A stretch of 64,000 bases of DNA from Escherichia coli (GCF_013315695.1 NZ_CP054353.1); one strand, 5' to 3'. Counted from the first letter of the stretch, positions 26,468-55,714 are shown. Notes: generated from the letters alone by a model not told the origin. Numbers and translations are program-made.

Positions 26468-29400
26468 ATGGGTAAAGGAAGCAGTAAGGGGCATACCCCG
26501 CGCGAAGCGAAGGACAACCTGAAGTCCACGCAGTTGCTGAGTGTGATCGATGCCATCAGCGAAGGGCCGGTTGAAGGTCCGGTGGATGGATTAAAAAGCG
26601 TGCTGCTGAACAGTACGCCGGTGCTGGACACTGAGGGGAATACCAACATCTCCGGTGTCACGGTGGTGTTCCGTGCCGGTGAGCAGGAGCAGACACCGCC
26701 GGAGGGGTTTGAATCCTCCGGCTCCGAGACGGTGCTGGGTACGGAAGTGAAATATGACACGCCGATCACCCGCACCATTACGTCTGCAAACATCGACCGT
26801 CTGCGCTTTACCTTCGGTGTACAGGCACTGGTGGAAACCACCTCAAAGGGTGACAGGAATCCGTCGGAAGTCCGTCTGCTGGTTCAGATACAACGTAACG
26901 GTGGCTGGGTGACGGAAAAAGACATCACCATTAAGGGCAAAACCACCTCGCAGTATCTGGCCTCGGTGGTGGTGGGTAACCTGCCGCCGCGCCCGTTTAA
27001 TATCCGGATGCGCAGGATGACGCCGGACAGCACCACAGACCAGCTGCAGAACAAAACGCTCTGGTCGTCATACACCGAAATCATCGATGTGAAACAGTGC
27101 TACCCGAACACGGCACTGGTCGGCGTGCAGGTGGACTCGGAGCAGTTCGGCAGCCAGCAGGTGAGCCGTAATTATCATCTTCGCGGGCGCATTCTGCAGG
27201 TGCCGTCGAACTATAACCCGCAGACGCGGCAATACAGCGGTATCTGGGACGGAACGTTTAAGCCGGCATACAGCAACAACCCGGCCTGGTGTCTGTGGGA
27301 TATGCTGACCCACCCGCGCTACGGCATGGGGAAACGTCTTGGTGCGGCGGATGTGGATAAATGGGCGCTGTATGTCATCGGCCAGTACTGCGACCAGTCA
27401 GTGCCGGACGGTTTTGGCGGCACGGAGCCGCGCATCACCTGTAATGCCTGGCTGACCACGCAGCGTAAGGCGTGGGATGTGCTCAGTGATTTCTGCTCGG
27501 CGATGCGCTGTATGCCGGTATGGAACGGGCAGACGCTGACGTTCGTGCAGGACCGACCATCAGATAAGGTGTGGACCTATAACCGCAGTAATGTGGTGAT
27601 GCCGGATGATGGCGCGCCGTTCCGCTACAGCTTCAGCGCCCTGAAGGACCGCCATAATGCCGTTGAGGTGAACTGGATTGACCCGAACAACGGCTGGGAG
27701 ACGGCGACAGAGCTTGTTGAAGATACGCAGGCCATTGTCCGTTACGGTCGTAATGTCACGAAGATGGATGCCTTTGGCTGTACCAGCCGGGGGCAGGCAC
27801 ACCGCGCCGGGCTGTGGCTGATTAAAACTGAACTGCTGGAGACGCAGACCGTGGATTTCAGCGTGGGTGCTGAAGGGCTTCGCCATGTACCGGGCGATGT
27901 CATTGAAATCTGCGATGATGACTATGCCGGTATCAGCACCGGTGGTCGCGTGCTGGCGGTGAACAGCCAGACCCGGACGCTGACGCTCGACCGTGAAATC
28001 ACGCTGCCATCCTCCGGTACCACGCTGATAAGCCTGGTTGACGGAAGTGGTAATCCGGTCAGCGTGGAGGTTCAGTCCGTCACCGACGGACTTAAGGTGA
28101 AAGTGAACCGGGTTCCTGACGGCGTTGCAGAATACAGTGTGTGGGGGCTGAAGTTGCCGACGTTGCGTCAGCGCCTGTTCCGCTGTGTGAGTATCCGTGA
28201 GAACGATGACGGCACGTATGCCATCACTGCCGTGCAGCATGTACCGGAAAAAGAAGCCATCGTGGATAACGGGGCGCACTTTGACGGCGACCAGAGCGGC
28301 ACGGTGAATGGTGTCACGCCGCCAGCGGTGCAGCACCTGACCGCCGAAGTCACCGCAGACAGCGGGGAATATCAGGTGCTGGCGCGCTGGGACACGCCGA
28401 AGGTGGTGAAGGGCGTGAGCTTCCTGCTCCGTCTGACCGTAACAGCGGATGACGGCAGTGAGCGGCTGGTCAGCACGGCCCGGACGACGGAAACCACATA
28501 CCGCTTCACGCAACTGGCGCTGGGGAACTACAGACTGACAGTCCGGGCGGTAAATGCGTGGGGGCAGCAGGGCGATCCGGCGTCGGTATCGTTCCGGATT
28601 GCCGCACCGGCAGCACCGTCGAGGATTGAGCTGACGCCGGGCTATTTTCAGATAACCGCCACGCCGCATCTTGCCGTTTATGACCCGACGGTACAGTTTG
28701 AGTTCTGGTTCTCGGAAAAGCGGATTACCGATATCAGGCAGGTTGAAACCACAGCCCGCTATCTTGGTACGGCGCTGTACTGGATAGCCGCCAGTATCAA
28801 TATCAAACCGGGCCATGATTATTACTTTTATATCCGCAGTGTGAACACCGTTGGCAAATCGGCATTCGTGGAGGCTGTCGGTCAGGCGAGCGATGATGCG
28901 GAAGGTTACCTGGATTTTTTCAAAGGCCAGATAACCGAATCCCATCTCGGCAAGGAGCTGCTGGAAAAAGTCGAGCTGACGGAGGATAACGCCAGCAGAC
29001 TGGAGGAGTTTTCGAAAGAGTGGCAGGACGCTAACGATAAGTGGAATGCCATGTGGGGCGTCAAAATTGAGCAGACCAAAGACGGCAAACATTATGTCGC
29101 GGGTATTGGCCTCAGCATGGAGGACACGGAAGAAGGCAAGCTGAGCCAGTTTCTGGTTGCCGCTAACCGTATCGCGTTTATTGACCCGGCAAACGGGAAT
29201 GAAACGCCGATGTTTGTGGCGCAGGGCAATCAGATATTTATGAACGACGTGTTCCTGAAGCGCCTGACGGCCCCGACCATTACCAGTGGTGGAAATCCAC
29301 CGGCATTTTCCCTGACATCAGACGGAAAGCTGACCGCTAAAAATGCGGATATCAGTGGCAGAGTGAATGCGAACGCCGGGACGCTCAACAATGTCACGGT

Positions 29401-29881
29401 AAATGAAAACTGTACGATTAAGGGCATGCTGGAGGCGACTCAGGTCAGAGGTGACTTCGTTAAAGCTGTATCCAAATCATTCCCGAAACAGGCTGGTACG
29501 TGGGGTAACACGGAAACACCAAACGGGACGGTTACAGTCACCATCAGCGATGATCATAACTTTGACCGTCAAATCATTATTCCGCCCATTATCTTTAACG
29601 GAATAGCGTATAGCGATCCGGGAAGTGGTAATAACCCGGGAGGTACAAGATACACGGGTTATGGTTTTGAAGTTCGCAAAAACGGTGTATTAATCGCATC
29701 CAGAGAAACTAAAGGGGCCATTCCCGGTAGCTACAGTGCGGTTATTGATATGCCGAGTGGCAGGGGAAGCGTCACTCTGGAGTTTAAGGTTTTCCATAAA
29801 GGCAATCAGTGGGCAGGTAATATCACCGACTGTACGGTGATTGTGACCAAAAAAGCCGCTTCCGGCATCAGTATTCGTTGA
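26468..29881 (+). CDS. J: central tail fibre / host-specificity protein J with a non-lambda C-terminal receptor-binding region
   Basis: 1137 aa (lambda gpJ is 1132 as I recall). Lambda-like to about residue 960-980, after which the sequence departs from my memory of lambda J. Confidence 0.95.
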
Positions 29882-29900
29882 AATTGTTATAACCCATATA

Positions 29901-29926
29901 AGGGCACCAGAAATGGTGCCTTTTTT
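29901..29926 (+). terminator. rho-independent terminator after J
   Basis: GGGCACC-AGAAAT-GGTGCC followed by TTTTTTATT. Confidence 0.6.
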
Positions 29927-29950: not shown

Positions 29951-30550
29951 ATGCGTAAACTTTATGCCGCCATTTTGTCCGCAGCCATTTGTCTGGCCGT
30001 ATCCGGTGCGCCTGCATGGGCATCTGAACATCAGTCCACGCTGAGCGCGGGGTATCTTCATGCCCGGACCAACGTTCCCGGCAGTGATGATCTGAACGGG
30101 ATTAACGTGAAATACCGTTATGAGTTTACGGATACGCTGGGGCTGGTGACGTCATTCAGCTATGCAGGAGACAAGAATCGCCAGCTGACCCGTTACAGCG
30201 ATACCAGCTGGCATGAAGATTCCGTGCGTAACCGCTGGTTCAGCGTGATGGCGGGGCCGTCTGTGCGCGTGAATGAATGGTTCAGCGCGTATGCGATGGC
30301 GGGTATGGCTTACAGCCGTGTTTCGACTTTTTCCGGGGATTACCTTCGCGTAACTGACAACAAGGGGAAAACGCACGATGTGCTGACCGGAAGTGATGAC
30401 GGTCGCCACAGCAACACGTCTCTGGCGTGGGGGGCTGGCGTGCAGTTTAACCCGACCGAATCCGTGGCCATTGATATTGCTTATGAAGGTTCTGGCAGTG
30501 GTGACTGGCGCACTGACGGTTTCATCGTGGGTGTCGGTTATAAATTCTGA
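29951..30550 (+). CDS. lom: Ail/Lom-family outer-membrane protein Lom
   Basis: 199 aa. Signal peptide MRKLYAAILSAAICLAVSGAPAWA and an 8-strand beta-barrel ending GFIVGVGYKF. Confidence 0.9.
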   Translation: MRKLYAAILSAAICLAVSGAPAWASEHQSTLSAGYLHARTNVPGSDDLNGINVKYRYEFTDTLGLVTSFSYAGDKNRQLTRYSDTSWHEDSVRNRWFSVMAGPSVRVNEWFSAYAMAGMAYSRVSTFSGDYLRVTDNKGKTHDVLTGSDDGRHSNTSLAWGAGVQFNPTESVAIDIAYEGSGSGDWRTDGFIVGVGYKF

Positions 30551-30576: not shown

Positions 30577-30603
30577 AGCCCGCCGGTTCAGGTGGGCTTT
30601 TTT
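30577..30603 (+). terminator. rho-independent terminator after lom
   Basis: AGCCCGCC-GGTTCA-GGTGGGCT followed by TTTTTTG. Confidence 0.6.
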
Positions 30604-30614
30604 GTGGGGGGAAT

Positions 30615-33011
30615 ATGGCAGTAAAGATTTCAGGTGTACTGAAAGACGGCACAGGAAAACCGGTACAGAACTGCTCAATCCAGCTGAAAGCAAAACGTAA
30701 CAGCACCACGGTGGTAGTGAACACGCTGGCCTCAGAAAATCCGGATGAAGCCGGGCGTTACAGTATGGATGTTGAGTATGGCCAGTACAGCGTTATCCTG
30801 CTGGTTGAAGGTTTTTCGCCTTCACATGCCGGGACCATCACCGTGTATGAAGATTCTAAGCCGGGGACGCTGAATGATTTTCTCGGTGCCATGACGGAAG
30901 ATGATGTCATGCCGGAGGCATTGCGTCGTTTTGAGGAAATGGTGGAAGAAGCGGCACGCAACGCTGAAGCCGCCTCTCAGAGCGCAGCGGCGGCAAAGAA
31001 ATCCGAAACTGCAGCGGCATCATCGAAGAACGCGGCGAAAACCTCAGAAACGAATGCAGCTAATAGTGCACAGGCGGCAGCGACCTCAAAGACTGCATCG
31101 GCAAACTCCGCGACAGCAGCCAAAAAATCAGAAACCAACGCGAAAAATAGCGAGACAGCCGCAAAGACGAGCGAAACCAACGCAAAGTCCAGCCAGACGG
31201 CAGCGAAAACCAGCGAAACGAATGCCAAAGCCAGTGAAACTGCGGCAAAAAACAGCCAGGTTGCAGCAGCCCAAAGCGAGAGCGCGGCAGCCGGTTCTGC
31301 GACTTCAGCAGCTGGATCAGCAACTGCTGCGGCTAACAGCCAGAAAGCTGCGAAGACGAGTGAAACTAACGCAAAGTCCAGCCAGACGGCAGCGAAGACC
31401 AGCGAAACGAATGCCAAAGCCAGCGAAACTGCGGCGAAAAACAGTCAGGATGCAGCAGCCCAAAGCGAGAGTGCTGCAGCTGGTTCTGCAAGCGCGGCGG
31501 CTGCTTCTGCCACTGCATCAGCCAACAGTCAAAAAGCAGCAAAAACCAGTGAAACCAATGCAAAGACAAGCGAGACTGCAGCGGCGAACTCGGCGAAAGC
31601 ATCGGCAGCAAGCCAGACAGCAGCTAAAGCAAGTGAAGACGCAGCCAGAGAGTATGCAAGTCAGGCAGCAGAGCCGTATAAATATGTCTTACAGCCACTG
31701 CCTGATGTGTGGATACCGTTTAACGATTCACTGGATATGATTACGGGCTTTTCGCCGTCATATAAAAAAATTGTTATTGGTGATGATGAAATAACGATGC
31801 CTGGCGACAAGGTTGTTAAGTTTAAACGCGCATCAACTGCCACATATATCAATAAATCAGGCGTATTTAGTGTTGCTAAAATTGATGAGCCACGATTTGA
31901 AAAAGAAGGTTTATTGATTGAAGGACAGCGCACTAACTATTTTGTTAAATCCAATACTCCCGCTGAATGGACGAGTACCAGCAATATCGATAAAACTAAT
32001 AATGGTGTTGATGAATTTGGTTTTTCATATGCCAAAATGCGAACAAAAGATAATATGACAGGACAATCATCTGCACTTAGTCTGCATACATGCAGTGCAT
32101 CCCGGGGGATTGATGTTAGTGGCGATAATAAGTATTGCACTGTTTCATGCAGGGTTAAAGCTCCTGATGGTCTTCGTTGTCGTTTGCGTTTTGAAAAATA
32201 CGATGGGTCGGTTTATACATTTTTAGGAGATGCTTATTTAACTTTCGGAACTCTGATAATAGAAAAAACTGGCGGAGCAGCCAATAGAATAGCAGCTACT
32301 GCAACTAAAGATCCGGTTACAGGGTGGATTTTCTATGAGGCAACTATAGAAGCTGTTGAAGGTGAAACCTTAATTGGCGCAATGATTCAGTATGCGCCGA
32401 AAAAAGGTGGTATAACTGAAGCGGGAGATTATATTTACCTTGCAACACCACAATTTGAAAACGGCGGATGTGCTTCATCTTTTGTTATTACGACAACTGC
32501 ACCCGCAACCCGCTCCAGTGATATGGTGACGATCCCAACTGAAAATAATATCTATAATAGACCGCTTACGTGTCTTGTCGAGGTTAATAGAAATTGGGGC
32601 GATATTCCTCCTAATGTAGCACCGCGTATTTTTGATTTTTCTGGTGTGCCACCTATTGAGTCAATTACATACGCTTTTAACACAACTGAGAAATATTACG
32701 GTCAGCTTTATATGCAAACTTATAAAGCGTCGACAAGTACTTACGTTTCTAGTGTGTTTGCTGGTCGAGCTGATGTTCGAAAATTCATTGGTGGTTTTAA
32801 TATTTATTCTGATGGTACTAAACGAGTAGTTTCTAACGGTGAGGCTACTAAAACTATGAAAACGGAGTGGACGGGCGTAAAAACACGGACCTTTATTCGA
32901 ATTGGAGGTCAAGCCACATCGGGAACTCGTCATCTATTCGGCCATTTGAGAAATCTTCGTCTCTGGCATAAAGAATTAACTGATGCGCAAATGGGGGAGA
33001 GTATTAAATGA
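30615..33011 (+). CDS. stf: side tail fibre protein (chimeric): lambda Stf-like N terminus, SETNA-type repeats, novel low-GC distal domain
   Basis: 798-aa uninterrupted ORF. N terminus MAVKISGVLKDGTGKPVQNC... is lambda Stf-like. Residues ~120-345 are Ala/Ser/Thr/Lys repeats. The C-terminal ~450 aa are AT-rich and end in a LamG/ConA-lectin-like signature (HLFGHLRNLRLWHKELTDAQM). Confidence 0.85.
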   Translation: MAVKISGVLKDGTGKPVQNCSIQLKAKRNSTTVVVNTLASENPDEAGRYSMDVEYGQYSVILLVEGFSPSHAGTITVYEDSKPGTLNDFLGAMTEDDVMPEALRRFEEMVEEAARNAEAASQSAAAAKKSETAAASSKNAAKTSETNAANSAQAAATSKTASANSATAAKKSETNAKNSETAAKTSETNAKSSQTAAKTSETNAKASETAAKNSQVAAAQSESAAAGSATSAAGSATAAANSQKAAKTSETNAKSSQTAAKTSETNAKASETAAKNSQDAAAQSESAAAGSASAAAASATASANSQKAAKTSETNAKTSETAAANSAKASAASQTAAKASEDAAREYASQAAEPYKYVLQPLPDVWIPFNDSLDMITGFSPSYKKIVIGDDEITMPGDKVVKFKRASTATYINKSGVFSVAKIDEPRFEKEGLLIEGQRTNYFVKSNTPAEWTSTSNIDKTNNGVDEFGFSYAKMRTKDNMTGQSSALSLHTCSASRGIDVSGDNKYCTVSCRVKAPDGLRCRLRFEKYDGSVYTFLGDAYLTFGTLIIEKTGGAANRIAATATKDPVTGWIFYEATIEAVEGETLIGAMIQYAPKKGGITEAGDYIYLATPQFENGGCASSFVITTTAPATRSSDMVTIPTENNIYNRPLTCLVEVNRNWGDIPPNVAPRIFDFSGVPPIESITYAFNTTEKYYGQLYMQTYKASTSTYVSSVFAGRADVRKFIGGFNIYSDGTKRVVSNGEATKTMKTEWTGVKTRTFIRIGGQATSGTRHLFGHLRNLRLWHKELTDAQMGESIK
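31158..31535 (+). repeat. 189-bp (63-codon) tandem duplication inside stf
   Basis: AAKTSETNAKSSQTAAKTSETNAKASETAAKNSQ.AAAQSESAAAGSA... occurs twice head to tail (31158-31346 and 31347-31535). The first ~125 nt of the two units are nearly identical. Confidence 0.85.
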
Positions 33012-33289
33012 AAGATTTAACACTCAAATTTGCAGACAGGGCCGACTTTTCGGCCTTTATGGAGAGCATTGGCTATTATGATGACGAGTCGATGCAGGAT
33101 GATATTCTTATTGACGTGATAGGTAATGTGTACAAAGAAACCGGAGAACTTACTGAAGATGGCGAGCCGGTATGTGTTAAGGAGGACGGATATTTTGTAA
33201 ATGTGCGCATCATTAATGATTCGCAAATATCGTCATTATTCGATGAATACGTGGTTGCTGTTGAGCATCAACTCCGTAGCTGGATGTGA
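33008..33289 (+). CDS. hypothetical acidic 93-aa protein, translationally coupled to stf
   Basis: ATGA overlap with the stf stop (33008-33011). No family recognised, and it does not resemble Tfa chaperones. Confidence 0.45.
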   Translation: MKDLTLKFADRADFSAFMESIGYYDDESMQDDILIDVIGNVYKETGELTEDGEPVCVKEDGYFVNVRIINDSQISSLFDEYVVAVEHQLRSWM

Positions 33290-33298
33290 GGAAGAAAA

Positions 33299-34003
33299 AT
33301 GGCTACATCGACAGTAATTCCTGATGACATCAAAACGCTAAAGGGAGATGTCAGTAAGGCAAAGGAAGATATTTCCTCAATTAACGTAAAAGTATCAACG
33401 CTTCAGACTGATATGGACAGTGCAAAGCAGGATATCAGTACCAGATACACAAAAACAGAAGTGGATAATAAGCTGAAAAACAAAGTGGAAGTGAACGATC
33501 TGGAAAGTGGTCGTTATGGCGGAGATTTTTACCCGCTGACTGGCCGTGAAGCGTTTTATTTATGGGGATTGGGCACAACTACAGCGGCGGCAAATCTTTA
33601 TCTTAATCCTGACCCTGCAATTTCGTCTGTGCTGCGGTCAACATCGTCTATCCGCTATAAACATTCAGTAGAGACGATAGATTCAGAGCACGCCGATCTC
33701 ATTTTCAGGATGCGCCCTGTGTGGTACAGGTCGCAATGCGAAAATGACAGGCGTGACTGGGGATTCTATGGATTGATTGCCGAGGAAGTAGGAGAAATTG
33801 CCCCTCAGTTTGTTCACTGGCGACCAGCCAACGAAGATGATGCACCGGAAACCATTTCCAGCAATGGCCTTGTTGCCGAAGGTGTAATGTACGAACGTCT
33901 GGTTGTTCCACTGATTCACCATATCCAGAAACTGACTGAAAGAGTTGATGAACTTGAGTCAGAATTGAAGTTGTTATCAACTTCCCAAAGCGATATCGGA
34001 TAA
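33299..34003 (+). CDS. short tail-fibre-like protein with a C-terminal peptidase-S74 intramolecular-chaperone domain
   Basis: 234 aa. GAGGA RBS. N-terminal coiled coil (DIKTLKGDVSKAKEDISSINVKVSTLQTDMDSAKQDIS). C-terminal S74 pattern SSIRYKHSVETID..ADLIFRMRPVWYRS..FYGLIAEEVGEIAPQFV..VMYERLVVPLIHHIQKLTERVDELESELK. Confidence 0.65.
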   Translation: MATSTVIPDDIKTLKGDVSKAKEDISSINVKVSTLQTDMDSAKQDISTRYTKTEVDNKLKNKVEVNDLESGRYGGDFYPLTGREAFYLWGLGTTTAAANLYLNPDPAISSVLRSTSSIRYKHSVETIDSEHADLIFRMRPVWYRSQCENDRRDWGFYGLIAEEVGEIAPQFVHWRPANEDDAPETISSNGLVAEGVMYERLVVPLIHHIQKLTERVDELESELKLLSTSQSDIG

Positions 34004-35686: not shown

Positions 35687-35710
35687 AAATAGCGGAATAT
35701 TTTGAAATTA

Positions 35711-37192
35711 TTATATTTCTGCTTCAGAATTTCCTGGGCAGTATATATTTTCTATTTTTTGTGGAGTGATCAGGTGATGTACAACTGCTTTATCTACACA
35801 TAAATTAACTCCGGTGAGAGCTAATGTATGCCCATCACCATTTATTGTTAGTAACGGGCTGGAAAATTTCTCTGCCATCTTACGGGCATTAATCCAGGGC
35901 GTTGTTGGGTCGTATTTGTGTGCTACAAACAGTAAACCAGAGGGCAGAACAGTATTTTTCAGGCGAGTTTTGTTCAGGTCGCTATGTATTGGCCATAATT
36001 CACAAAAATCAGGTGAATCGGAACGTCCATTGTCAAAGTTAATAGCCGGGAAGGCATTCGCAAGAGCGTCTTTTCGGGATTTTCGCTCTTCTGGTGTTAA
36101 TTGCTCATCCCCCTGATCTACACAGAGGATTACCCCCGAAGCATCGCTTGACTCTTCTGAGGCTATCTGAGCACTGAGCGCAGTTTCAATTTCATTACTG
36201 ACAATCCCCTGAGAGAACTGGCGTATGGCAGTTGCAAGGGTTGGCCATGATGAACGCCATAGCAGAAGGTCTGTTGTTAATGATATGAGTTCATCTGAAG
36301 ATATATTTTCTCCCTTACTGTCTAATAAAGGTTTGTGATGTAATTTTGATAATAGCTCATGGAACTGAGTTATTGCCTTATCTCTGTCTGAAGAAAGCGG
36401 GCAACTTTTTGTACGCGCACACCAGGATGCAAAGCGATCAAACGTTTCCTGATAACTCTGTGCCTGTTTGAGTTGCCATGTGAAGTTGTCCTCCAGGTCA
36501 TCGATATCGACGACTCCATCAAGAACGATAGATCTTACGTTGTAGGGAAAACGTTCTGCATATAAGGCTGCAATTTGAGTTCCATACGAATACGCCACGG
36601 CTGTCAGTTGTTTATCCCCCAAGGCTTGCCTAATACGATCAATATCGTATACAGCCTCGTTAGAGCCGATATGGCGAATGACTTCGGCTCCGGTATTATG
36701 GATACAGGCATTAATTTTATTTAATACTTGTTGCTTTTCGGTTATGTTTTCCTGAGTCTCTGTATCTGATTGCCGGCAGTTTATTGTCGGAGTGGACTGT
36801 CCGACGCCTCGAGGATCAAATCCAATAATATCCCATGACTCACGAAGATTTGTGACTGGCCAGTCAAAGTTAATATAAGGATTTATGCCTGGTAACCCGG
36901 GACCACCACTTATTATCAGGATACTTCCTTTATGCTTGCTTTTTGCCGGCAATTTTGTCAACGCTAGTTTGACTTGTGATTTTTTTTCATAAGAAGCATC
37001 TCCGCCTGTGTCTGTATATTTTAATGGAACAGACAAATAACCACATAGTAAGTCAGGAGACGGTTTTTCCTCACCAAACCAGTGGTTGAATTGACTGGCC
37101 ATACAGGATTGCCACTGTATCTGCTGGGCAGATACGGTTACTGGTAGAAGTAACGTTAAAACAACTTTGAAATGAGTAATTATTTTTCGCAT
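35711..37192 (-). CDS. secreted alpha/beta-hydrolase serine peptidase (S33 / TAP-like tripeptidyl-aminopeptidase family)
   Basis: 493 aa. Signal peptide MRKIITHFKVVLTLLLPVTVSA|QQ. Nucleophile elbow VAYSYGT. C-terminal Asp (KYDPTTPW) and His (INGDGHT). AT-rich codon usage. Confidence 0.75.
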   Translation of the reverse strand: MRKIITHFKVVLTLLLPVTVSAQQIQWQSCMASQFNHWFGEEKPSPDLLCGYLSVPLKYTDTGGDASYEKKSQVKLALTKLPAKSKHKGSILIISGGPGLPGINPYINFDWPVTNLRESWDIIGFDPRGVGQSTPTINCRQSDTETQENITEKQQVLNKINACIHNTGAEVIRHIGSNEAVYDIDRIRQALGDKQLTAVAYSYGTQIAALYAERFPYNVRSIVLDGVVDIDDLEDNFTWQLKQAQSYQETFDRFASWCARTKSCPLSSDRDKAITQFHELLSKLHHKPLLDSKGENISSDELISLTTDLLLWRSSWPTLATAIRQFSQGIVSNEIETALSAQIASEESSDASGVILCVDQGDEQLTPEERKSRKDALANAFPAINFDNGRSDSPDFCELWPIHSDLNKTRLKNTVLPSGLLFVAHKYDPTTPWINARKMAEKFSSPLLTINGDGHTLALTGVNLCVDKAVVHHLITPQKIENIYCPGNSEAEI

Positions 37193-37330
37193 TGTGTCTC
37201 TGAATATCGGAATAAAGATAAGATTTGAATATATTGAGGTCTTGTGTTGCGGTAAGAGATTACACGTTATGACATAGGTTAAATGCTTACAAAATTAGTG
37301 GATATTGTCTACTTGTAACTGTAAACAAAT

Positions 37331-37359
37331 TCCCCGGGGTTATACAATACCACCGGGGA
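37331..37359 (-). terminator. ompT terminator hairpin
   Basis: TCCCCGG...CCGGGGA stem 20 nt below the ompT stop. Followed on the minus strand by ATTTGTTT. Confidence 0.5.
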
Positions 37360-37378
37360 GAAAATCTGGTTAACTTCG

Positions 37379-38332
37379 TTAAAAGGTGTACTTAAGACCA
37401 GCAGTAGTGATGAAGTTATAGTTTTCTATGCCTGCACCATTTTTGCTGTAGTCTGAAGTGTTATCATTGTGATCATAAAGTGAAGTATTACCTTTTTTAT
37501 TCGTAACCCGATTCCATGCGCCTTCAACATAAACTTTTGCGTTAGGTGTTACGTAATAACCTGCATTGACTGCAACAGAATAGTAATTTTGGTCTTTGAC
37601 TTTACTGCGATAAGTGATTCTTTTTCCTGGGTCATAGTGCTCATCGTTATCAGATGCTTCCACCCAGCCGCTGTATTTAAATGTGCCACCTAGCTCAAAA
37701 TCTTCATAACGATAACTTCCAGTCAAGCCAATGTAGGGCATTTTAAAACGTTGTTTGTAGCCGATTGCTCTTTCTCCATTCGGGAAGGAGCCGATATCAT
37801 CTCTGAATCCCTCCTCAGAACTGTAGATATAGGAACCACCTCTGGCTGTAAAGCTATAACGGCTTTCCTGATATCCGGCCATGAGTCCCAGGCGGTAATT
37901 GGGTTCGTTGAGGAGCCAGCCTTTGATATTCAGATCAAATTCGTTGGCATAATTGAGTTGTGTATCAGGGTGCCTACTTTCATCTGTCCAGGTTCCGGGG
38001 TTACTGGAATCCATCCAGTCCTGATCGACCATATTGCCACCTCGGCTGCCGAGAGTAGTCCAGCCCGCAGCCCCAATAGATATCTGGGGCATCAAATCCC
38101 AATTAATTGCACCTTTAATAATTGCAGCGTTATTGAATTTCCAGTCGAGTTGACTGACTTTTCGGCCTCCTTCTTCAGCTAGATAAACGCGCTCTTTTGT
38201 TTTTCCGCTCAGAGTTCCAAGACTAATGTCCGCATTTATGTTGTCAGGAGTAAACGATATAGTCTCGGTAGAAGCAAAAGAGCTGATCGCAATAGGGGTT
38301 GTCAGGACTATTCCCAGAAGTTTCGCCCGCAT
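37379..38332 (-). CDS. ompT: outer-membrane aspartyl (omptin) protease OmpT
   Basis: 317 aa MRAKLLGIVLTTPIAISSFA... ending TTAGLKYTF. Recognised as OmpT. Confidence 0.95.
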   Translation of the reverse strand: MRAKLLGIVLTTPIAISSFASTETISFTPDNINADISLGTLSGKTKERVYLAEEGGRKVSQLDWKFNNAAIIKGAINWDLMPQISIGAAGWTTLGSRGGNMVDQDWMDSSNPGTWTDESRHPDTQLNYANEFDLNIKGWLLNEPNYRLGLMAGYQESRYSFTARGGSYIYSSEEGFRDDIGSFPNGERAIGYKQRFKMPYIGLTGSYRYEDFELGGTFKYSGWVEASDNDEHYDPGKRITYRSKVKDQNYYSVAVNAGYYVTPNAKVYVEGAWNRVTNKKGNTSLYDHNDNTSDYSKNGAGIENYNFITTAGLKYTF

Positions 38333-38754
38333 AAAAGTTCTCCATTCAATCGTTTTAATGATTGAATATGTATTTTTTATATCTAACTTAATGAGTCAAT
38401 TACATATTGCTCCACTGTTTATATTTTGTTTAGTATTGAATGATTATCACAATGCGCTATCTGTTTTTGGTTTAATTATCTGTTATTGTTTTATGTTGCG
38501 GTTTTACTGTGTGGTTTTTTATGCTTTTGTGGTGTTTTTATCTATTTAAGCGCCATGCCTTTAGAGGCATATAAGCGAAAATAGCATGAGGTTTATCCTC
38601 AATTGCTATGTTTTTTGGTACAAAAAAGAGGGACAAAACTGAGACACATAAGGCCTCACAATGGCTTGCAAGGCTTTACATGTTTTGAGGTAGTGGGACG
38701 TGTGAGCGCAGAGATGGCGCGGTAAGTTGTTGACTTAAAATGTCGTTCTAGGAA

Positions 38755-38801
38755 CTTCTAAGTCGTGGGCCGCAGGTTCGAATCCTGCAGGGCGCGCCAT
38801 T
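38755..38801. repeat. prophage attR core (47-bp copy of the argU 3' part)
   Basis: CTTCTAAGTCGTGGGCCGCAGGTTCGAATCCTGCAGGGCGCGCCATT is identical to 2070-2116. The upstream tRNA half is absent, so this is not a functional tRNA. Confidence 0.9.
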
Positions 38802-38844
38802 TCTTCTTCATTTATCCCCGTCTTATCCGTTTCCGCTTTGCCCT

Positions 38845-39606
38845 TCACCACATCACTTTTTGTCGCTGTTTGGCGAGATAATTCAACGGTGTCAGGCCGT
38901 AAAACGCCTTAAAAACAGAGATAAAGTACGACGTGCTGCTATAGCCACATAATTGCGCTACCTGAGTGATATTTTTGTTATCCATCAATAACATCTGTAC
39001 GGCGTAACGCATACGACACTCTGTGACAATCTGGCTATAGCTGGTATTTTCGTTTTTTAATTTCTTTTTGAGCAGGCTGGGGCTTAAACATAGCGAACTG
39101 GCGACAATTCGCAGATTCCAGTAATGCTGAATATCGCTTTGAATAATGCGGCAGACGCTGTCGCGGACGCTGCTGCGTAAGATATACATCAGTAGGGCAA
39201 TAAACCGCGATTGCTCAAGAAAGTTAGACAATACGGTAAAAAGCAATGCGCGCGTCAACTCCGCTTCGCAGGGTTTGCTGGGTTGCTGCTTGCTGTGGTT
39301 GGCGGCTAGCCGGAACACTTCCGGTGTACGGCTATGACAAGCGATAACCGGGGTTGCCAGCCGCGACCAGGGCTTTATACAGGTTAAGTTCTTATTTAAA
39401 AACAACAGATAATCGTTGATGATGTTACGGTTGATGTGGGTGATTAATACGTGATTTAACGTTGAGAGTTCAATGACGTTATTGTTGCACGCGAAGGCGG
39501 CCAGGTAGTTTTTCGGAAGGGTAAACGTAGCATGGTTATTGACGCTTACCTCTACCTCTTTTTCGGTCAGGATCACCACGCAAGGTTCACTGCTGCTCAA
39601 TTGCAT
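38845..39606 (-). CDS. envY: AraC-family porin thermoregulator EnvY
   Basis: 253 aa. C-terminal AraC HTH (ITQVAQLCGYSSTSYFISVFKAFYGLTP). Confidence 0.9.
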   Translation of the reverse strand: MQLSSSEPCVVILTEKEVEVSVNNHATFTLPKNYLAAFACNNNVIELSTLNHVLITHINRNIINDYLLFLNKNLTCIKPWSRLATPVIACHSRTPEVFRLAANHSKQQPSKPCEAELTRALLFTVLSNFLEQSRFIALLMYILRSSVRDSVCRIIQSDIQHYWNLRIVASSLCLSPSLLKKKLKNENTSYSQIVTECRMRYAVQMLLMDNKNITQVAQLCGYSSTSYFISVFKAFYGLTPLNYLAKQRQKVMW

Positions 39607-39788
39607 TTCGCACTCCTCAGATATCAGAAACTCCGCTCAAAGGATCTATGCTTCCTGCATGAGTGATCGGCCCGTTCGCCGATAACGATCTTCTTTCTTT
39701 AGCACGCTTTTTAGCAATTAATCTTGATGGAATTCTGACGAGAGCGAAAGAGGTAAGCCAGGTCGTACCCGACTTACCTGGAGGAGAT

Positions 39789-40679
39789 TTAATACTCGAG
39801 AATGCCGTGCGCGACGGGCAAATAGCGCAGAGAGAAATAGAGCGTGTCTTTACCGCAAGAGGAACGTTTCGCTAACAGCGAGGCAATTTCTGCGTCCGGT
39901 TTCGGTTTCGCTGTAAAGGTTTTGCCTTTGCCGGCGACAAACAGTTCATAAACAATGCCGCTTGCTGGGGCGGAGCTTTGGCAATCGGCGCTGGCCTGTA
40001 GATAACGTTCACGCTGTTCAGCGGTCAGTTTATCCACGCCGCTGCCATCCTGTACCCAGACATTAACGCCGGTTGCTTTAACGTGTTCCAGCAGTTGGCG
40101 ATAGCCATCGGGCGACATGTTTCCGGCGAAAAAACTACTGATATAAACCGGTTTTGCTGAAACATCGCTAATCAACCGCTGCGCGTTGTTTAACCATGTT
40201 AGCAAAGGCTGACGGGCGGCTTCGCTGCGCCAGTTCAGGTCGTCAATTTCCGCGCTGATGTACCAGCCATCCGGCGTTACGCCAGGTACGGCGCTCCATA
40301 ATCTGGCTTGCTGGAGATCGGCAGCCAGCAGGCGGTTAAGATAGCTTTCCAGCGCTGCAGACGACTGTTTCTGGTGCATAAAAAATTCCGGATCGGCATT
40401 CAGCCCGACAATCAGCTTCAGGCCAGCCTGTTGCGCAGCTGCGGCACGCTTAAACAATAACGCGCGCTGTTCTGGCTGGGTGAATGCATCGCCGTAACGA
40501 GTCCATTGCAAAACCAGGGTATCGAAGCCTTGCAAACGTAACTGACTCATCAGCCCCTGCCACTGGGTATCGGTAACCTGACTATCACGGTTTTGTGGTT
40601 GCCAGATAATACCTTTCATCGCAAAGGAAAAAGGGCTGACCAAAAGCAGTGTCAGCAATACGAAAATGAACTTACGCAT
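39789..40679 (-). CDS. ybcH: periplasmic protein YbcH (third gene of the nfrB-nfrA-ybcH operon)
   Basis: 296 aa. Signal peptide MRKFIFVLLTLLLVSPFSFA. Its ATG (40677-40679) abuts the nfrA stop (40680-40682). Confidence 0.85.
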   Translation of the reverse strand: MRKFIFVLLTLLLVSPFSFAMKGIIWQPQNRDSQVTDTQWQGLMSQLRLQGFDTLVLQWTRYGDAFTQPEQRALLFKRAAAAQQAGLKLIVGLNADPEFFMHQKQSSAALESYLNRLLAADLQQARLWSAVPGVTPDGWYISAEIDDLNWRSEAARQPLLTWLNNAQRLISDVSAKPVYISSFFAGNMSPDGYRQLLEHVKATGVNVWVQDGSGVDKLTAEQRERYLQASADCQSSAPASGIVYELFVAGKGKTFTAKPKPDAEIASLLAKRSSCGKDTLYFSLRYLPVAHGILEY

Positions 40680-43652
40680 TTACCAGTGCACTCCAATGGT
40701 GAGAAACGCGTTGTTGCGCTCTCCGTTACGTTGATTAATCGCCTTAAAGGTATGTTGATACTCGACGCCGAGACTGACTTTGTGCGGCCAGGCGTCGTAG
40801 TGCGTCTCGCCGGTCCAGATATTCCAGCGGACCCCGACTCCGCCAAGCTGCGCGCCCTGAGTGCCTTTATCACGATAGCCGTTGTCCTGAACGTGAGCGT
40901 AAGGCTCAATAGTCTGTCCGTTAGCCACCTTCTGATGCCAGCTGACGCGATAATCTGCCGTCCACGCCTGAATATCCTGGCGGACATATTGCGCCGCATC
41001 GAGGTACAGGTTTTGGGCAAACCAGCCTGAACCGTTCGGGTGCCATTCGTCGCTGTATTTGCCGCCATTAAAGAATGAGGCGCTGGCGCGCAGCATGGTA
41101 TCGGATGCGCCATTTTGGCCGTTCAGCGGCAACTGCTGTTCGACGGCGAGGAAAAAGATCTGATCGCGCAGCGGCTTCCAGCGCAGACCGGTGCCGGACA
41201 TCGGATTTTTCACCGGCATCATCACCCCGTTTTCACCGGTATCGGCAAATACACGGCTGTAAACCGAGAGCAGGTCGCCTTCCAGCAGCATATTGCGTCC
41301 GATGCGGTACTCGGCTTCCAGTTGCCCGTAGCTACGATAGCTTTTCCCTGGCGCTGCGCCGCCGACATTATTGTTAGCGGTACTCATTGCGCCGGAACGC
41401 AAGCCGATAGAAGAATCGAAACTGAACGTCCAGCGGCGACCGACCTCCTCATGCAGACGGCGGAAATTGAAGCGTTGCTGATTTTGCTCTGGGGTCAGTG
41501 GGGTTATCAGCGCCTGATTATCAATGTCATCAATCACCAGCCGGGCGTAGTGCTGCGTCGCAGGCATGTCATCCAGACGCTGGTTCACGTAGGCCAGTTG
41601 TCGGATAAGTGCCGGATCGTCCGGTAGCCCTTTATGCGCCTGTTCGAGCATTTTCCGCGACTGTGCGATATCACCGCTATCCCACAAGGCGTAACCGAGC
41701 GCTGCCTGGGTGTTGCTATTATTCGGTTCCAGTTCCAGCGCGGCGCGCAAATCACTCACCGCCGCCGGGACATTATGACGTTGGCGATAAATTGTCGCCC
41801 GCGCAACGTAAGCGTTGGCAGAAGGCGCAATATTGATTGAGCGCGTGAGATCGTTCAGTGCGAGTTCCGGCTGACCAGGAATGTAACGTTGCGCATGCAG
41901 CCACCTGTAGAGGGCATTGTTTCCCAGCCCACGTTGTTCTGCCTGCTGAAGCCAGCGATCGCGAGCCGCACCATTTCCTGCCGCCTGGGCGGTATTGGCA
42001 GCAGCAAGCAGATCCTCATTGCTCATGTCGTGAAGACTGATTTTCTGCCAGGCCGCCAGTGCGGTGGCGTAGTCCTCAACCTGATACGCCTGATAGGCTA
42101 CCGCACGATGTTGCCAGGCGTTCGGTTGTCGTTGTTCGGCCTGAAGCCATGCATACAACGCCACACCGGGTAGCGTGTCCCGATAACACTTTGCCAGACG
42201 GTTCCAGGCGGCGGCATCGTAGGAAGGCGACATATCGCCCAGCAAGCGAACTATTGCCGGGCAATTATCTGCAATACCCGGCAACTGACTTTGCCACTGA
42301 CGTTGCTCCGCCAGCGGTAAGGGTTTCGATAAAATCGCCACCTTCGCCGGCGTTGCCAGGTAAGGATGACTTTCCAGCAGAGACGCCAGTTGCGCCATTA
42401 ACGTCTGGCTGACACGCGCATCGCCCTGGAAAGGATAGCGTTGCAGCAATAAATCGGCAGCTTCGCGTGACTGCTCGTTCTGCATCAGTTGCCAGGTCAG
42501 TTGATCCAGGCGGGTAAGATTTGCCGGTTCTTGCTGATACAGCAATCGTGCCAGACGCAGAGCTTCAGCCTTGTTATGGGTCGCTACGCTAACGGTATAA
42601 CGCTCCTCAAGCATTTCATTGGCGGGGAGGGTGGCGAGCAGTTTTTGCGCTGCGTCGTACTGACCTTCTTTTAACAGCACCGGTAGCGTCGCGCCAACAA
42701 CATACTGGCGGTTATCGGCAAACTGTACCGTATAATTCGCCAACGCCTGAACGGGGTTGACGCTGTATTTAGATAACAGATAGAGCCAACTTTTCTCTTG
42801 TGCGTCCGTGGTAAACAGCGGCTTATTTTCAATGAGATAACGCTGGAGGCGTGCTTTTTCGCCACGATAAGCCAGCGCGGTCGCGTAAGTAATATATGAC
42901 TGCGGATCGGTGAAGATCCCCTGTGATTGCAGCGCCAGGATCCGATCGTCCAGCTGCCCGGCAAGAAGCACATCAAACCACTGGCGGCGTTCTGCCGCGC
43001 TTAATGTGTTCTGCTGGCGTGCTTCATTGTATAGCGTATCTGCCTGGGACCATTGTTTCAGGTAGATTGCGCGTTGCAGCAGATCGGTTCGCAGCGTTTT
43101 TCCTTCCGGCGATGCAGCAAACGTCGCATCGTTTAGTTGCGCTCTGGCGACAGGTAATTGTGCCAGCCGCAGGGCATTCTGCCCGACTTCACTGCGACAA
43201 CGCAGGGTCGGCGCAGCATCGCACGCTTTTTGCTGGGCAAGCAGTTCTTCAACAGTCGTAACGCTTTTCACTTCAACTGGAATAGCCGCCAGACTGCGCT
43301 CAAGCCGGTCATCTCCTGGGTGACGTTTCAGTTGATCCTCAAGCAACAGCCGCGCCCGGTCATCATGACCAAAATGGCGATAGGCTTCCGCAAGGTATAA
43401 AGTTAGTGGAATATTATCCGGCACCTGTTGGTGTATATATTCAAATTCGCGGATGGCGGTTGCTTCGTCGTTATTTTTCTGTGCCTTCAGCGCCTTGTCG
43501 AGACGGGGATAAATAACGAAATGGCGATAATCGCTCAGCCCCAGCTCTTCTGCGCTGGTGCCGATATTGTCTGCGAGTGCGCTGGTACTCAATAAAGACG
43601 TCAGCAGTAAACCAGACCATCCGATGACGCGATTAAGGTTATTCTCCTTCAT
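40680..43652 (-). CDS. nfrA: outer-membrane TPR + beta-barrel protein NfrA (PgaA/BcsC-like exopolysaccharide porin; phage N4 receptor component)
   Basis: Track ORF 40680-43673. Start set at MKENNLNRVIGWSGLLLTSLLSTSALA (990 aa, the K-12 length). Long TPR-like N-terminal region and a C-terminal barrel ending AFLTIGVHW. Confidence 0.9.
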   Translation of the reverse strand: MKENNLNRVIGWSGLLLTSLLSTSALADNIGTSAEELGLSDYRHFVIYPRLDKALKAQKNNDEATAIREFEYIHQQVPDNIPLTLYLAEAYRHFGHDDRARLLLEDQLKRHPGDDRLERSLAAIPVEVKSVTTVEELLAQQKACDAAPTLRCRSEVGQNALRLAQLPVARAQLNDATFAASPEGKTLRTDLLQRAIYLKQWSQADTLYNEARQQNTLSAAERRQWFDVLLAGQLDDRILALQSQGIFTDPQSYITYATALAYRGEKARLQRYLIENKPLFTTDAQEKSWLYLLSKYSVNPVQALANYTVQFADNRQYVVGATLPVLLKEGQYDAAQKLLATLPANEMLEERYTVSVATHNKAEALRLARLLYQQEPANLTRLDQLTWQLMQNEQSREAADLLLQRYPFQGDARVSQTLMAQLASLLESHPYLATPAKVAILSKPLPLAEQRQWQSQLPGIADNCPAIVRLLGDMSPSYDAAAWNRLAKCYRDTLPGVALYAWLQAEQRQPNAWQHRAVAYQAYQVEDYATALAAWQKISLHDMSNEDLLAAANTAQAAGNGAARDRWLQQAEQRGLGNNALYRWLHAQRYIPGQPELALNDLTRSINIAPSANAYVARATIYRQRHNVPAAVSDLRAALELEPNNSNTQAALGYALWDSGDIAQSRKMLEQAHKGLPDDPALIRQLAYVNQRLDDMPATQHYARLVIDDIDNQALITPLTPEQNQQRFNFRRLHEEVGRRWTFSFDSSIGLRSGAMSTANNNVGGAAPGKSYRSYGQLEAEYRIGRNMLLEGDLLSVYSRVFADTGENGVMMPVKNPMSGTGLRWKPLRDQIFFLAVEQQLPLNGQNGASDTMLRASASFFNGGKYSDEWHPNGSGWFAQNLYLDAAQYVRQDIQAWTADYRVSWHQKVANGQTIEPYAHVQDNGYRDKGTQGAQLGGVGVRWNIWTGETHYDAWPHKVSLGVEYQHTFKAINQRNGERNNAFLTIGVHW

Positions 43653-45651
43653 TTTCGGACTCCAGTTGCGCAACCTGTTCTGTGTTTAAACCTGCTTTGA
43701 GTAATAGTGATTGCATCGAAACTTGTAATTCGCGTTGAATTGTCAGGACGCGATCCAACGTTTCCTGGCTGATAACGCCTTCGGTGACCAAAAACTTGCC
43801 GAGCGGCAGAGAACTGCGTTCATGGCGCAATAACAACACGTTAATTGCTGAACGATTAATATGACCGAGCGTGGTCAGTATTTCGGCGAACAGGAACTGA
43901 TGCGGCACATATTGCCGCCAGATTTCACCGGCCTGCTGTTCCGTGAGCCACTGATGCTGAACTGCATTGTACAACATTGCCCGCGGATCGTGACCGCGTC
44001 GGCGTGCATACCAGTGGCGTAATCCGGTGACAATTTGTCCCCGCAGAACAATGACGTAACGCACTTTGCGTCCGACTTTACGCGTCAGGGCCGCCAGCGA
44101 AACCGGGTCAATACCATCTTCACTGCCGACAATTAACTCATCATTGTCCAGACGCAGCGGCAGTACCGCATAATGCAGCGCCACGGAGGCCGGCATTTCG
44201 GCAATCAGCGAGGAAGGGATCTGCCAGGCATCGATGGATTCCCACGCCACTCGACGCGGATCGCCGTGTTGAAGTACCTGTTTTAACGCGCGCCAGTTGG
44301 CCATGAAGTTAATCAGGTTACCCCAGAAAAGACGCAGGACAGATAGCAGCCCCTGCGTCAGACCGTAGTAGCCAGTGACAAAAATCACCCGCTGCACGAT
44401 GCGGTTAACCATCAAACCAAAGTTTAGCCACAGCAGGGTCATTAACCATGCGCTGCCGCTGAAAATAGAAAGGAAATGCCAGGCATCGGGCCACAAACTT
44501 TCATACGCCAGTAACAGCAAAAGCTGGATCATCACCAGCATCGCGAGGAAGCTGACAAAGTTACTGATTGCCCCTTTGCGGTCGCGCCAGAGAAAGTAGT
44601 TCAGCGTCAGGCTGGAGGTCCATTTGTGGGTTTTAAAGCCCTGGAAAACAATGCCGATGATCCAGCGAGATTTTTGTCGAACCGCAGTCGAAAAGGTATC
44701 GGGGAAATATTCGCGCACGCAGATCATGTTTGACGTCCGTGCGTGCTGTAAAAATTTACGCTGCTCGCGTTCTTTGGCTTCGTCCACCACCGGAAAACGG
44801 ACAAAAATTTCCGTCATACCTTTTTCTTTCAGGCGGAAGCCAATATCGTAATCTTCAGTCAGACTCTGCACGTCGAAAGCAATACCGTCACCGTCAGCTA
44901 ACAGAGCGGTCACGGCGCGGCGGCTGAAACAGGTGCCGACGCCTGCGCTGGGCACTTGTCCGGCGAGGGCTTCACGCACCGGAACATCCTTGCCATGCAG
45001 TTCTGAAAACTCATCAATGTAAGTCATGCTGGTGAAGTGCGTCCATTCGCGTTCGAACGGATACACTGGGATCTGAATCAGATCTTTACGCTCGACCAGA
45101 TAGTTGAACAGACGCAATTCCATCGGTGAAATCACATCTTCGGCGTCATGCAGAATAAAACCAGCAAAAGCGAAATTGGCGCTACGTTCAAATTGGGTGA
45201 TGGCGTCCAGCACGTTGTTCAGACAGTCGGCTTTGCTGGTGGGGCCAGGACGCGCGCAGACTACCTTATGCACGTTCGGGAAGCGAGCGCACACTTCGTC
45301 AACATCACGCTGAGTATCGGGGTCGTTGGGGTAGGTGCCAACAAAGATATGATAGTTTTCGTAGTCGAGCGTGGTCGCCGCCAGCTCGGCCATATTGCCG
45401 ATGACGCCCGTTTCATTCCACGCCGGAACCATAATCGCTAACGGTTTTTCATCTGGTTTATACAGTTCGCGGTAACTCATTCGCGGGTAGCGGCGATAAA
45501 CACTCAACTTGCGTTTAATGCGGCGTACCCAGTAGACGACATCAATAAAAAAATCGTCCAGCCCGCTGATGAACATGATGACCGCTAACGTTATCGCGAT
45601 TACTTTTAAGCCGTAGAGCCAGGTAGCAAAAACATCAAGAAGCCAGTCCAC
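43639..45651 (-). CDS. nfrB: inner-membrane family-2 glycosyltransferase NfrB with a C-terminal MshEN-like domain; 670 aa here
   Basis: N-terminal TM. GT2 motifs LHDAEDV, LTEDYD and RQKSRW, plus further TM segments. C-terminal LPLGKFLVTEGVISQETLDRVLTIQ motif. The stop overlaps the nfrA start by 14 nt. Confidence 0.9.
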   Translation of the reverse strand: MDWLLDVFATWLYGLKVIAITLAVIMFISGLDDFFIDVVYWVRRIKRKLSVYRRYPRMSYRELYKPDEKPLAIMVPAWNETGVIGNMAELAATTLDYENYHIFVGTYPNDPDTQRDVDEVCARFPNVHKVVCARPGPTSKADCLNNVLDAITQFERSANFAFAGFILHDAEDVISPMELRLFNYLVERKDLIQIPVYPFEREWTHFTSMTYIDEFSELHGKDVPVREALAGQVPSAGVGTCFSRRAVTALLADGDGIAFDVQSLTEDYDIGFRLKEKGMTEIFVRFPVVDEAKEREQRKFLQHARTSNMICVREYFPDTFSTAVRQKSRWIIGIVFQGFKTHKWTSSLTLNYFLWRDRKGAISNFVSFLAMLVMIQLLLLLAYESLWPDAWHFLSIFSGSAWLMTLLWLNFGLMVNRIVQRVIFVTGYYGLTQGLLSVLRLFWGNLINFMANWRALKQVLQHGDPRRVAWESIDAWQIPSSLIAEMPASVALHYAVLPLRLDNDELIVGSEDGIDPVSLAALTRKVGRKVRYVIVLRGQIVTGLRHWYARRRGHDPRAMLYNAVQHQWLTEQQAGEIWRQYVPHQFLFAEILTTLGHINRSAINVLLLRHERSSLPLGKFLVTEGVISQETLDRVLTIQRELQVSMQSLLLKAGLNTEQVAQLESENEGE

Positions 45652-45800
45652 ACAAAAACCTTACATTAACGCTGGTTATGTTTAGGGTGGCGTATATTAA
45701 AGTTTTTTATGAATTGTGACAGCTTTTTATCATTAATAGGTATGACTATTGCGGCACGTTATTTTTACACTGGTTATAAAAGTTGCCGTTTGCTGAAGGA

Positions 45801-47243
45801 TTAAGCGGGTAATGTGATAACAAACCTTGTCCCCCGCGCATCCGACGTTACCGCAACCGTGCCTTTATGTGCGACAACAATCGATTTCACTATCGCCAGG
45901 CCAATGCCGCTACCTTCGCCTTTTCGCTGGCGGGAAGGATCAACGCGGTAGAAACGGTCAAACAATCGCGGTAAGTGTTCGGGCGCAATGGGCGTACCGG
46001 GGTTTTCGACGGAAACTTGCACCTGGTGATCGACCGTCTGGCAGCGCACAACAATTGCCTCTCCGGGTGGCGTATAACGCAGGGCGTTCGAAAGCAGGTT
46101 GCTTAACGCCCGACGCAACATCAGCGGATCGCCCGCAACCTGACACTCGTCACCAACAAACCGCAACTCCACGCCGCGATCTTCCGCTAACGCCTCGAAA
46201 AAATCGAACACTTTGCCGACTTCATCCGCCAGGTTGAGCATTTTCTTTTCGGGGATTAACTGGTTGTTATCGGCCTGGGCGAGAAACAACATATCGCTGA
46301 CCATTTTCGCCATTCGCGTCAGCTCTTCGAGATTAGAGTAGAGCACATCTTCCAGCTCCTTCTGGCTGCGCGACTGGCTGAGGGCGATTTCCGTTTGCGT
46401 TATGAGATTCGTAATTGGTGTACGAATTTCGTGGGCGATATCCGCTGAGAAATTGGACTGGCGGGTAAAGACATCCTCAATACGCTCGATCATATGGTTG
46501 AACGACAGCACCAGTTGTTCGAGTTCAATGGGCACGGTCTGTGGATCGAGGCGAACGTCGAGATCTTTCGAGGTGATATTCTGGATTTGACGGCTGACGC
46601 TGCGGATCGGCGCGTGACCTTTATGTACCGCCAACAGCACGATAAAGACGATCAGGATGCTGATTACCGATGCGGTCATTACAAGTTTATTCATCAAATC
46701 ATTTATGTAATGAAGATGAAAATCGATCGAAAGCGCAATGTAGAGCGTATAAATCGGTTTGCCGTCCACCAGTGGGCCAACCGGCAAGCTAATCATCCGC
46801 CAGTTGCTGTGTTCCATATGTCCGTGACCGTGGCCTGGCATCATCATTGTCGGGCCGGAAAGGAGATACACCTCGCCGCCCCGAGCGTCTTTATCGGGTA
46901 TGGCATCACGTGCAAACTCGCGGATATCGGGCGCGTCGGGGGAGTGATACACCGTTTTACCCAGGCTATCTGCCAGGGAGATCAACACATTGGAATAACC
47001 ACTGACAATATCTTCCAGCGTCATTAAGCGTCGGGCTTGCGTTTCGTCAGGGTGATTAAGTACCCGTTCAAGGGTGGCGCTAATCTCTTTTAAATCATTA
47101 ATATCCTGCTCGGCAAAATGCACTTTTACCGAGTGGATCATGATCCAGGCAAAGGCGAAAAACGCCGCGATGGTGGCCAGGCTAATAAAAAAGGTCAGGC
47201 GGGTTGCCAGCGAAAACGGGCGCTGAAACGGCTTACTGACCAT
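45801..47243 (-). CDS. cusS: copper/silver sensor histidine kinase CusS
   Basis: Track ORF 45801-47255. Start at [16 protein letters not shown] (480 aa). H-box [11 protein letters not shown]. Periplasmic His/Met-rich loop [13 protein letters not shown]. Confidence 0.9.
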
Positions 47244-47916: not shown

Positions 47917-47981
47917 ATTTCCTCCGCATGTTGCCCGGGCAATTCTAGAGTAGCGGGATCAGATGGCAATCGCTTATTGGC

Positions 47982-48003
47982 AAAATGACAATTTTGTCAT
48001 TTT
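47982..48003. promoter_or_regulatory. CusR box (perfect palindrome) in the cusR-cusC divergent promoter region
   Basis: AAAATGACAA-TT-TTGTCATTTT between the divergent cusR and cusC genes. Confidence 0.75.
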
Positions 48004-48072
48004 CCTGTCACCGGAAAATCAGAGCCTGGCGAGTAAAGTTGGCGGCATAAAATCACCAGAAATTATGAGCCT

Positions 48073-49455: not shown

Positions 49456-49478
49456 CTTTTAACTCCAGGAGAGAATAT

Positions 49479-49811: not shown

Positions 49812-49826
49812 CCCAGGTTTAATGAG

Positions 49827-51050: not shown

Positions 51051-51061
51051 GGGAATAGCCA

Positions 51062-54205: not shown

Positions 54206-54306
54206 AAGCAGGATACCCGGTTTAACCGTGTGGATTGTGTCTTGCGACGATGGGCACTAAATGTTAAAAGGTGCCCCTCAACAAAAAAGACACACAGGGG
54301 AAAGGC

Positions 54307-55683: not shown

Positions 55684-55714
55684 GGCATTCACGCTACATC
55701 CGACAAAACGATGT

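Follow-up and report, generated by a model that had tools for sequence, protein, structure and literature searches.

The J gene and its setting

The window analysed here is a stretch of 64,000 nt from the chromosome of Escherichia coli (NZ_CP054353.1, assembly GCF_013315695.1), and all positions are counted from its first nucleotide. It carries a prophage in which a complete lambda-type head and tail operon (tape measure, M, L, K, I, J, lom and stf) surrounds a full-length J gene (Table 1). J is the only long ORF that spans positions 29350–29881, the segment singled out in the initial annotation of this DNA, and all the peptides quoted there are present in its product. The Pfam domains PF24801, PF13550, PF24421, PF24489, PF09327 and PF12421 were each found above the cut-off and in order, and the domain succession runs from FNIII-A and Phage-tail_3 through two Ig_J domains and Phage_Tail_Tip (aa 845–972) to the C-terminal Ig-like receptor-binding domain (RBD). 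With this canonical order and an uninterrupted ORF placed in a lambda-type tail operon (H-M-L-K-I-J-lom-stf), J belongs to the tip attachment protein family of lambda gpJ. RefSeq gives the name gpJ to the identical gene (WP_016235924.1) of AF3, a blood culture isolate and one of two human isolates that match the window at 100% over 2 kb. The long antisense ORF within J is probably an artefact of a GC-rich coding strand that leaves it free of stop codons.

At its right end (window ∼ 35700..64000) the prophage adjoins ompT, envY, ybcH, nfrA and cusSRCFB, with fragments of tail-fibre-assembly and DinI genes lying between the phage and ompT. In K-12, the DLP12 cryptic prophage lies in this neighbourhood.

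Table 1. Features of the J–stf region of the window, with DNA identity to phage lambda where it was calculated.
Feature	Coordinates	Strand	DNA identity to lambda (gap columns)	Basis or remark
Complete J gene (tail tip attachment/host specificity protein), 1137 aa	26468..29881	+		ORF; six gpJ Pfam domains in canonical order; RefSeq name
Conserved J trunk (hub domains, FNIII/Ig domains, helical shaft, most of the straight fibre)	26468..29269	+	96.7% (0)	97.2% identity to 434, no gaps
Antisense ORF within J, 510 aa	27560..29092	-
Transition zone ending the universally conserved fibre segment; probable recombination zone	29270..29419	+	88.7% (0)	90.7% identity to 434
434-type receptor-binding domain (Ig-like) plus stop codon	29420..29881	+	48.0% (61)	Allele identity to 434; PF12421; structure matches
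PF12421, 'Tip attachment protein J, C-terminal receptor binding domain', aa 1001–1136	29468..29875	+		Pfam, E = 9e-26
Terminator-like hairpin followed by T run, just 3' of J	29900..29923	+		Homologous site annotated as terminator in the 434 record
lom (Ail/Lom outer-membrane beta-barrel, 199 aa), separate module	29951..30550	+		PF06316, E = 6e-119
Terminator-like hairpin and T run 3' of lom	30577..30598			Terminator at the equivalent site of the 434 record
stf, side tail fibre, 798 aa; second adhesin of the tail, outside the J swap	30615..33011	+		PF08400 at the N-terminus
Ala/Ser/Thr/Lys-rich tandem repeat in stf, 189 nt, 2.3 copies	31149..31583

Divergence from lambda J

In the alignment with lambda J (NC_001416, 15505..18903, 1132 aa), between 46 and 50 residues are identical in each block of 50 aa up to aa 950, and the successive blocks beyond that point have 36/50, 21/50, 15/50 and 13/43 identical residues. 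Over the last 153 aa the identity is 36%, and the DNA falls to less than half identical from 29420 onward (Table 1). The C-terminal divergence that the initial annotation had reported is thus borne out by alignment, with none of the high identity to lambda over the last 150 residues that would mark a lambda-like tip. It had likewise been correct in describing J as 5 aa longer, a difference that is the net result of five indels (+2, +6, +1, +2 and -6) at or near lambda positions ∼ 1012, 1048/49, 1077/78 and ∼ 1107. With 36% aa identity to lambda J 985–1132 and indels at these sites, the tip falls outside the lambda-type, LamB-binding RBD. The proposed start of the divergent segment at 29350 was accurate at the protein level, as the first amino acid change that follows the sequence ...KNADISG is R965 (nt 29360); the sharp DNA break against lambda comes later, at ∼ 29420 (aa 985).

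The tip belongs to the phage 434 allele class

The initial annotation had suggested aligning J with its counterparts in other phages in order to find the closest C-terminal allele with a known receptor. This allele proved to be that of phage 434, for which the literature gives OmpC. The last 153 aa of the two proteins, which are of equal length (1137 aa), are 95% identical with zero indels, while the DNA of 29420..29881 is 92.6% identical with zero gap columns. Over the whole gene, DNA identity is 96.3% to J of 434 and of lambda h434 imm21 and 98.4% to J of PhiR49_1. The segment 29350–29881 is 100% identical in DNA to PhiR49_1 and 99.6% identical to ∼ 28 Stx1a- and Stx2c-converting phages, and the RBD protein is 100% identical in the Stx1a/Stx2c phages, ev099 and IdasGreatGrand. 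Given this near-identity to 434 J over residues ∼ 965–1137, with the same length and no indels, the divergent 3' end of J is, as judged by sequence, the phage 434 (h434) allele of the J specificity region. The J proteins of 434 and of the window differ by substitutions at 25 residues in all; 11 of these lie at aa 965 or beyond, and seven fall within aa 985–1137 (S1004A, Q1008K, A1009V, N1019D, S1049D, R1099G and W1115R), several of these near the hypervariable indel sites.

A search with the tip protein against 50,697 phage records found 243 homologous records, of which 74 were at least 92.8% identical and 169 at most 46% identical, with none between the two groups; the lambda tip was found at 36.3%. 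The bimodality indicates that the divergence reflects neither chance nor uniform drift. Nine aligned J representatives fell into four discrete tip classes, with 34–44% identity between most classes: a 434-type class (J of the window, 434 and PhiR11_1_star), a lambda-type class (lambda), a class comprising WGPS8, Stx2a phages and 4A7, and a class comprising VT1-Sakai and PhiR5_1. DNA of the 434 class is present in 2110 of 5426 complete E. coli genomes (∼ 39%), in 755 of them at ≥ 99% identity.

A module junction at a conserved fibre segment

All nine aligned J variants share the block ...FLKxLxAxxITSxGNPPxFSLTxxGxLTAxNADISGxVNANxGTLxNVT..., even where the upstream shaft is very different, and the tip classes part just after it. 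A conserved stretch beside a variable one would be the expected place for tips to be exchanged by homologous recombination, and the 150 nt that precede the break, where identity to lambda and to 434 is intermediate, are consistent with recombination at the conserved block. Tips of the 434 class were found on different J trunks and with different lom and stf neighbours.

Residues 960–1132 of J have been described as a 'specificity region' that carries correlated indels at 1012, 1048/49, 1077/78 and 1107 and has a phylogeny incongruent with that of the rest of J, and the authors regarded it as a module that evolves independently (Maddamsetti et al., 2018; PMC6646904). OmpC-targeting lambda particles have been produced by equipping lambda J with C-termini from natural gpJ proteins (Brödel et al., 2024; PMC11338833); in the chimera sequences deposited in the supplement of that work, lambda passes into foreign sequence directly after ...AAAAATGCGGATATCAGTGGC, i.e. 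after ...KNADISG. The engineered fusion point, right after ...GATATCAGTGGC, coincides with the junction in J of the window. As the junction matches both the published boundary and the fusion point of the chimeras, it is a real module junction and one that has already been exploited. The initial annotation had called it clean. It does represent a genuine module boundary, placed where a stretch shared by all examined J variants ends, at the published residue-960 boundary and at the chimera fusion point; the word 'clean' itself needs to be qualified, given the transition zone of ∼ 150 nt (88.7% identity) ahead of the sharp break at 29420.

Downstream modules

Divergence from lambda goes on past the J stop codon, through the hairpin and almost all of lom, and DNA similarity returns at ∼ 30480. 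Because the divergence is continuous from 29420 to ∼ 30480, we considered that the J tip and lom might be one co-inherited cassette. This was rejected, as Lom of the window, which is 98% identical (aa) to Lom of 434 and 44% identical to that of lambda, is also 96% identical to Lom of WGPS8, where it stands behind an RBD of a different class; PhiR11_1_star (434-class tip) and 4A7 (A8-like tip) both have no lom between J and stf. Thus, the J tip and lom assort independently of each other; they are neighbouring modules that both happen to differ from lambda, whose lom is the outlier. The two terminator-like hairpins with their T runs flank lom in the manner of a moron, and the 434 record has terminators at the equivalent sites.

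The N-terminus of stf is conserved with lambda and 434. Its distal module was matched at more than 80% coverage only by PhiR49_1 (99.9%) among the 50,697 phage records, which makes the side-fibre adhesin far rarer than the J tip allele. The distal half of stf and the ORFs that follow it (including 33008..34003) have a low GC content (0.37–0.43), and stf contains a tandem repeat (Table 1).

Predicted receptor

The initial annotation had stated that, in lambda, this segment binds LamB and is the site of host-range mutations, and published work agrees. In the cryo-EM structure, each subunit of the trimeric, Ig-like RBD of lambda extends four loops into the lumen of the LamB trimer on its extracellular side; on binding, the RBDs spread apart at the bottom, whereupon the straight fibre twists, the helical shaft flips and the tail tip opens (PMC11101478). 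Of the substitutions that gave lambda the use of OmpF, 97% fell within residues 960–1132 of J (PMC6646904). When lambda J is exchanged for the 434 gene, the phage binds OmpC, which is given as the receptor of both 434 and lambda h434 (PMC3509688; PMC11101478), and the central fibre of 434 has been described as OmpC-targeting, with an AlphaFold3 model in which its loops touch OmpC (PMC12502783).

Membership in the 434 class makes OmpC the most probable receptor of the J tip in the window. That the tip targets something other than the receptor of lambda was therefore the right conclusion to draw, and it can be narrowed to a predicted OmpC on the grounds of a 434 allele (95% aa identity, no indels) for which the literature reports this porin. 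Taken as a whole, we consider it highly likely that the 3' end of J is a 434-type RBD allele which was joined by homologous recombination, inside the universally conserved fibre segment, to a lambda-like J trunk, and that it uses the porin OmpC, not LamB. By analogy with lambda, three copies of the Ig-like domain would form the tip of the central tail fibre, and the variable loops at the bottom of the RBD would dock at the mouth that a trimeric porin opens to the outside of the cell, a porin which for the 434 allele class would be OmpC and not LamB. Binding of OmpC would then spread the domains, causing the fibre to twist and the tail tip to open, and DNA ejection would begin. Full-length alignment of the tip with the solved RBDs of lambda and A8 suggests the same device with different loops.

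A tip of the 434 class could nevertheless belong to a sub-allele whose loop-proximal substitutions let it use another or a further porin, such as OmpF, or restrict it to certain OmpC variants. This appears improbable, even though several of the seven substitutions relative to 434 in aa 985–1137 lie beside hypervariable sites and small changes in J are known to have such effects: phage 21 and lambda can gain receptors through one to four substitutions in J, a single mutation being enough for phage 21 to use OmpC and a few for lambda to use OmpF (PMC11336670; PMC6646904), and the A8 and 1A2 tips discriminate among OmpC variants (PMC11338833). The tip of J is 95% identical to 434 without indels, the 434 class is tight (92.8–100%) and separated by a gap down to 46% from any other class, and where lambda and phage 21 are known to gain a receptor, it comes in addition to the native one, which is not abolished. 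We infer that the sub-allele with seven substitutions also uses OmpC.

Its fine specificity could differ from that of 434, given the seven differing residues, the ability of a few substitutions to add receptors and the discrimination of OmpC variants by A8 and 1A2. As the sub-allele is identical to that of the O157:H7 Stx1a/Stx2c phages and differs from 434 at loop-proximal residues, it may be tuned to particular natural OmpC variants or have gained a second porin, and sub-allelic variation might set which E. coli lineages are entered by toxin-carrying phages; we regard this as unlikely. A literature search on the PhiR phages and on receptors of long-tailed Stx1a/Stx2c phages gave nothing usable: no paper was found on PhiR49_1, and none on which receptor is bound by the Stx1a/Stx2c phages with this tip.

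The OmpC dependence of 434 and h434 might also be due to Stf and not to J, in which case the J tip allele would be uninformative about OmpC. In lambda h434 imm21 (OM418627), DNA of 434 starts at lambda coordinate ∼ 17,630 (J aa ∼ 711) and extends to the right across lom, stf and the NleB/NleC effector region, so that 'h434' is much more than a receptor-binding tip. Since this classical hybrid carries lom and stf of 434 besides the 3' half of its J, it cannot by itself separate J from the side fibre, and for the same reason we rejected it as a means of narrowing the OmpC determinant to the tip. Moreover, the Stf of Ur-lambda itself binds OmpC (PMC11338833). Still, an origin in Stf seems very unlikely. 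J is the irreversible receptor binder that triggers ejection in lambda (PMC3509688; PMC11101478), and a swap of the gpJ tip alone, with natural gpJ C-termini on lambda J, moves delivery from LamB to OmpC even in particles that have the unrelated side fibre of P2 (PMC11338833), although the C-termini used in that work belong to allele classes other than that of 434. It is also the central fibre of 434 that has been modelled docking on OmpC (PMC12502783), and the distal stf of the window is unrelated to that of 434, while the J tip is conserved.

Finally, there is next to no chance that the tip diverged in place, by point mutations under diversifying selection and without module replacement, as might be read into the 'progressive' divergence seen in the initial annotation and the 150-nt zone at 88.7% identity, because DNA identity drops within tens of bases from 96.7% to 48% (61 gap columns), tip identity across phages is bimodal with no intermediates, the same tip occurs on different J trunks with different lom and stf neighbours, and trunk and tip phylogenies are incongruent (PMC6646904).

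Implications for annotation

With OmpC as the predicted receptor, the central fibre can be annotated as '434-type J, predicted OmpC-binding' and need not be assumed to bind LamB. The label bears on the prediction of host range and superinfection and on the choice of tips for lambda-based delivery particles. The allele is old, named and very common, with DNA of its class in ∼ 39% of complete E. coli genomes. Published work already covers the allele and its receptor class as well as the modular junction and how engineers use it; the finding is real but ordinary. The sub-allele common to the O157:H7 Stx1a/Stx2c phages might accept a range of OmpC variants other than that of 434; if it is indeed tuned, the tip sub-allele, rather than the class, might decide which E. 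coli lineages Stx phages enter.

Comparison with known systems

Among the closest known counterparts are J of phage 434 (central tail fibre, UMO75286.1) and the h434 host-range allele of lambda h434, with the same length and indel pattern and the identities given above (96.3% for the DNA of the whole gene, 95% for the last 153 aa). Phage 434 also has the same downstream lom allele (98% aa identity) but a different side tail fibre module (437 aa versus 798 aa in the window). Another is J of PhiR49_1 and PhiR49_1_star (PV340568/9): PhiR49_1 is identical over 29350–29881, matches J as a whole at 98.4% and has stf and downstream genes that are 99.9% identical; it differs in lom, which is annotated as two CDSs and is apparently disrupted. 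The Stx1a/Stx2c-converting phages of O157:H7 share the tip (99.6% DNA, 100% protein) but differ in their cargo and immunity regions.

The RBD of lambda gpJ (PDB 8XCJ/8XCK) is a homologous Ig-like domain at the same position on the trunk (E = 5e-20 to 8XCJ with the tip alone), and its docking and triggering mechanism is presumably shared with the J tip. It differs in sequence (36% aa identity, the indels lying close to or at the four hypervariable sites) and in receptor, which is LamB for lambda and predicted to be OmpC here. The best PDB match to the J tip was 9WCA ('A8 gpJ 713', E = 1e-28), aligned at full length. With full-length alignments to solved gpJ RBDs, the fold of the tip is not in question.

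Like J of the window, the engineered OmpC-targeting chimeras A8 (PDB 9WCA/9WCB) and 1A2 combine a lambda trunk with a foreign tip that begins after ...KNADISG. We considered whether A8 or 1A2 might carry the J tip allele itself; this was rejected, as the exact tip DNA strings are absent from the supplement of PMC11338833 and the sequences given there are of other classes. The A8 tip is almost identical to that of WGPS8 and the Stx2a phages, and the 1A2 tip likewise to that of VT1-Sakai and PhiR5_1. These two classes are 42% and 38–39% identical, respectively, to the J tip of the window, which is therefore homologous to the A8-like and 1A2-like RBDs but of another class (38–42% identity to their natural representatives). 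Since A8 and 1A2 match natural classes, at least three tip classes have been reported as OmpC-binding, being ∼ 40% identical to the 434 class or ∼ 60% identical to each other.
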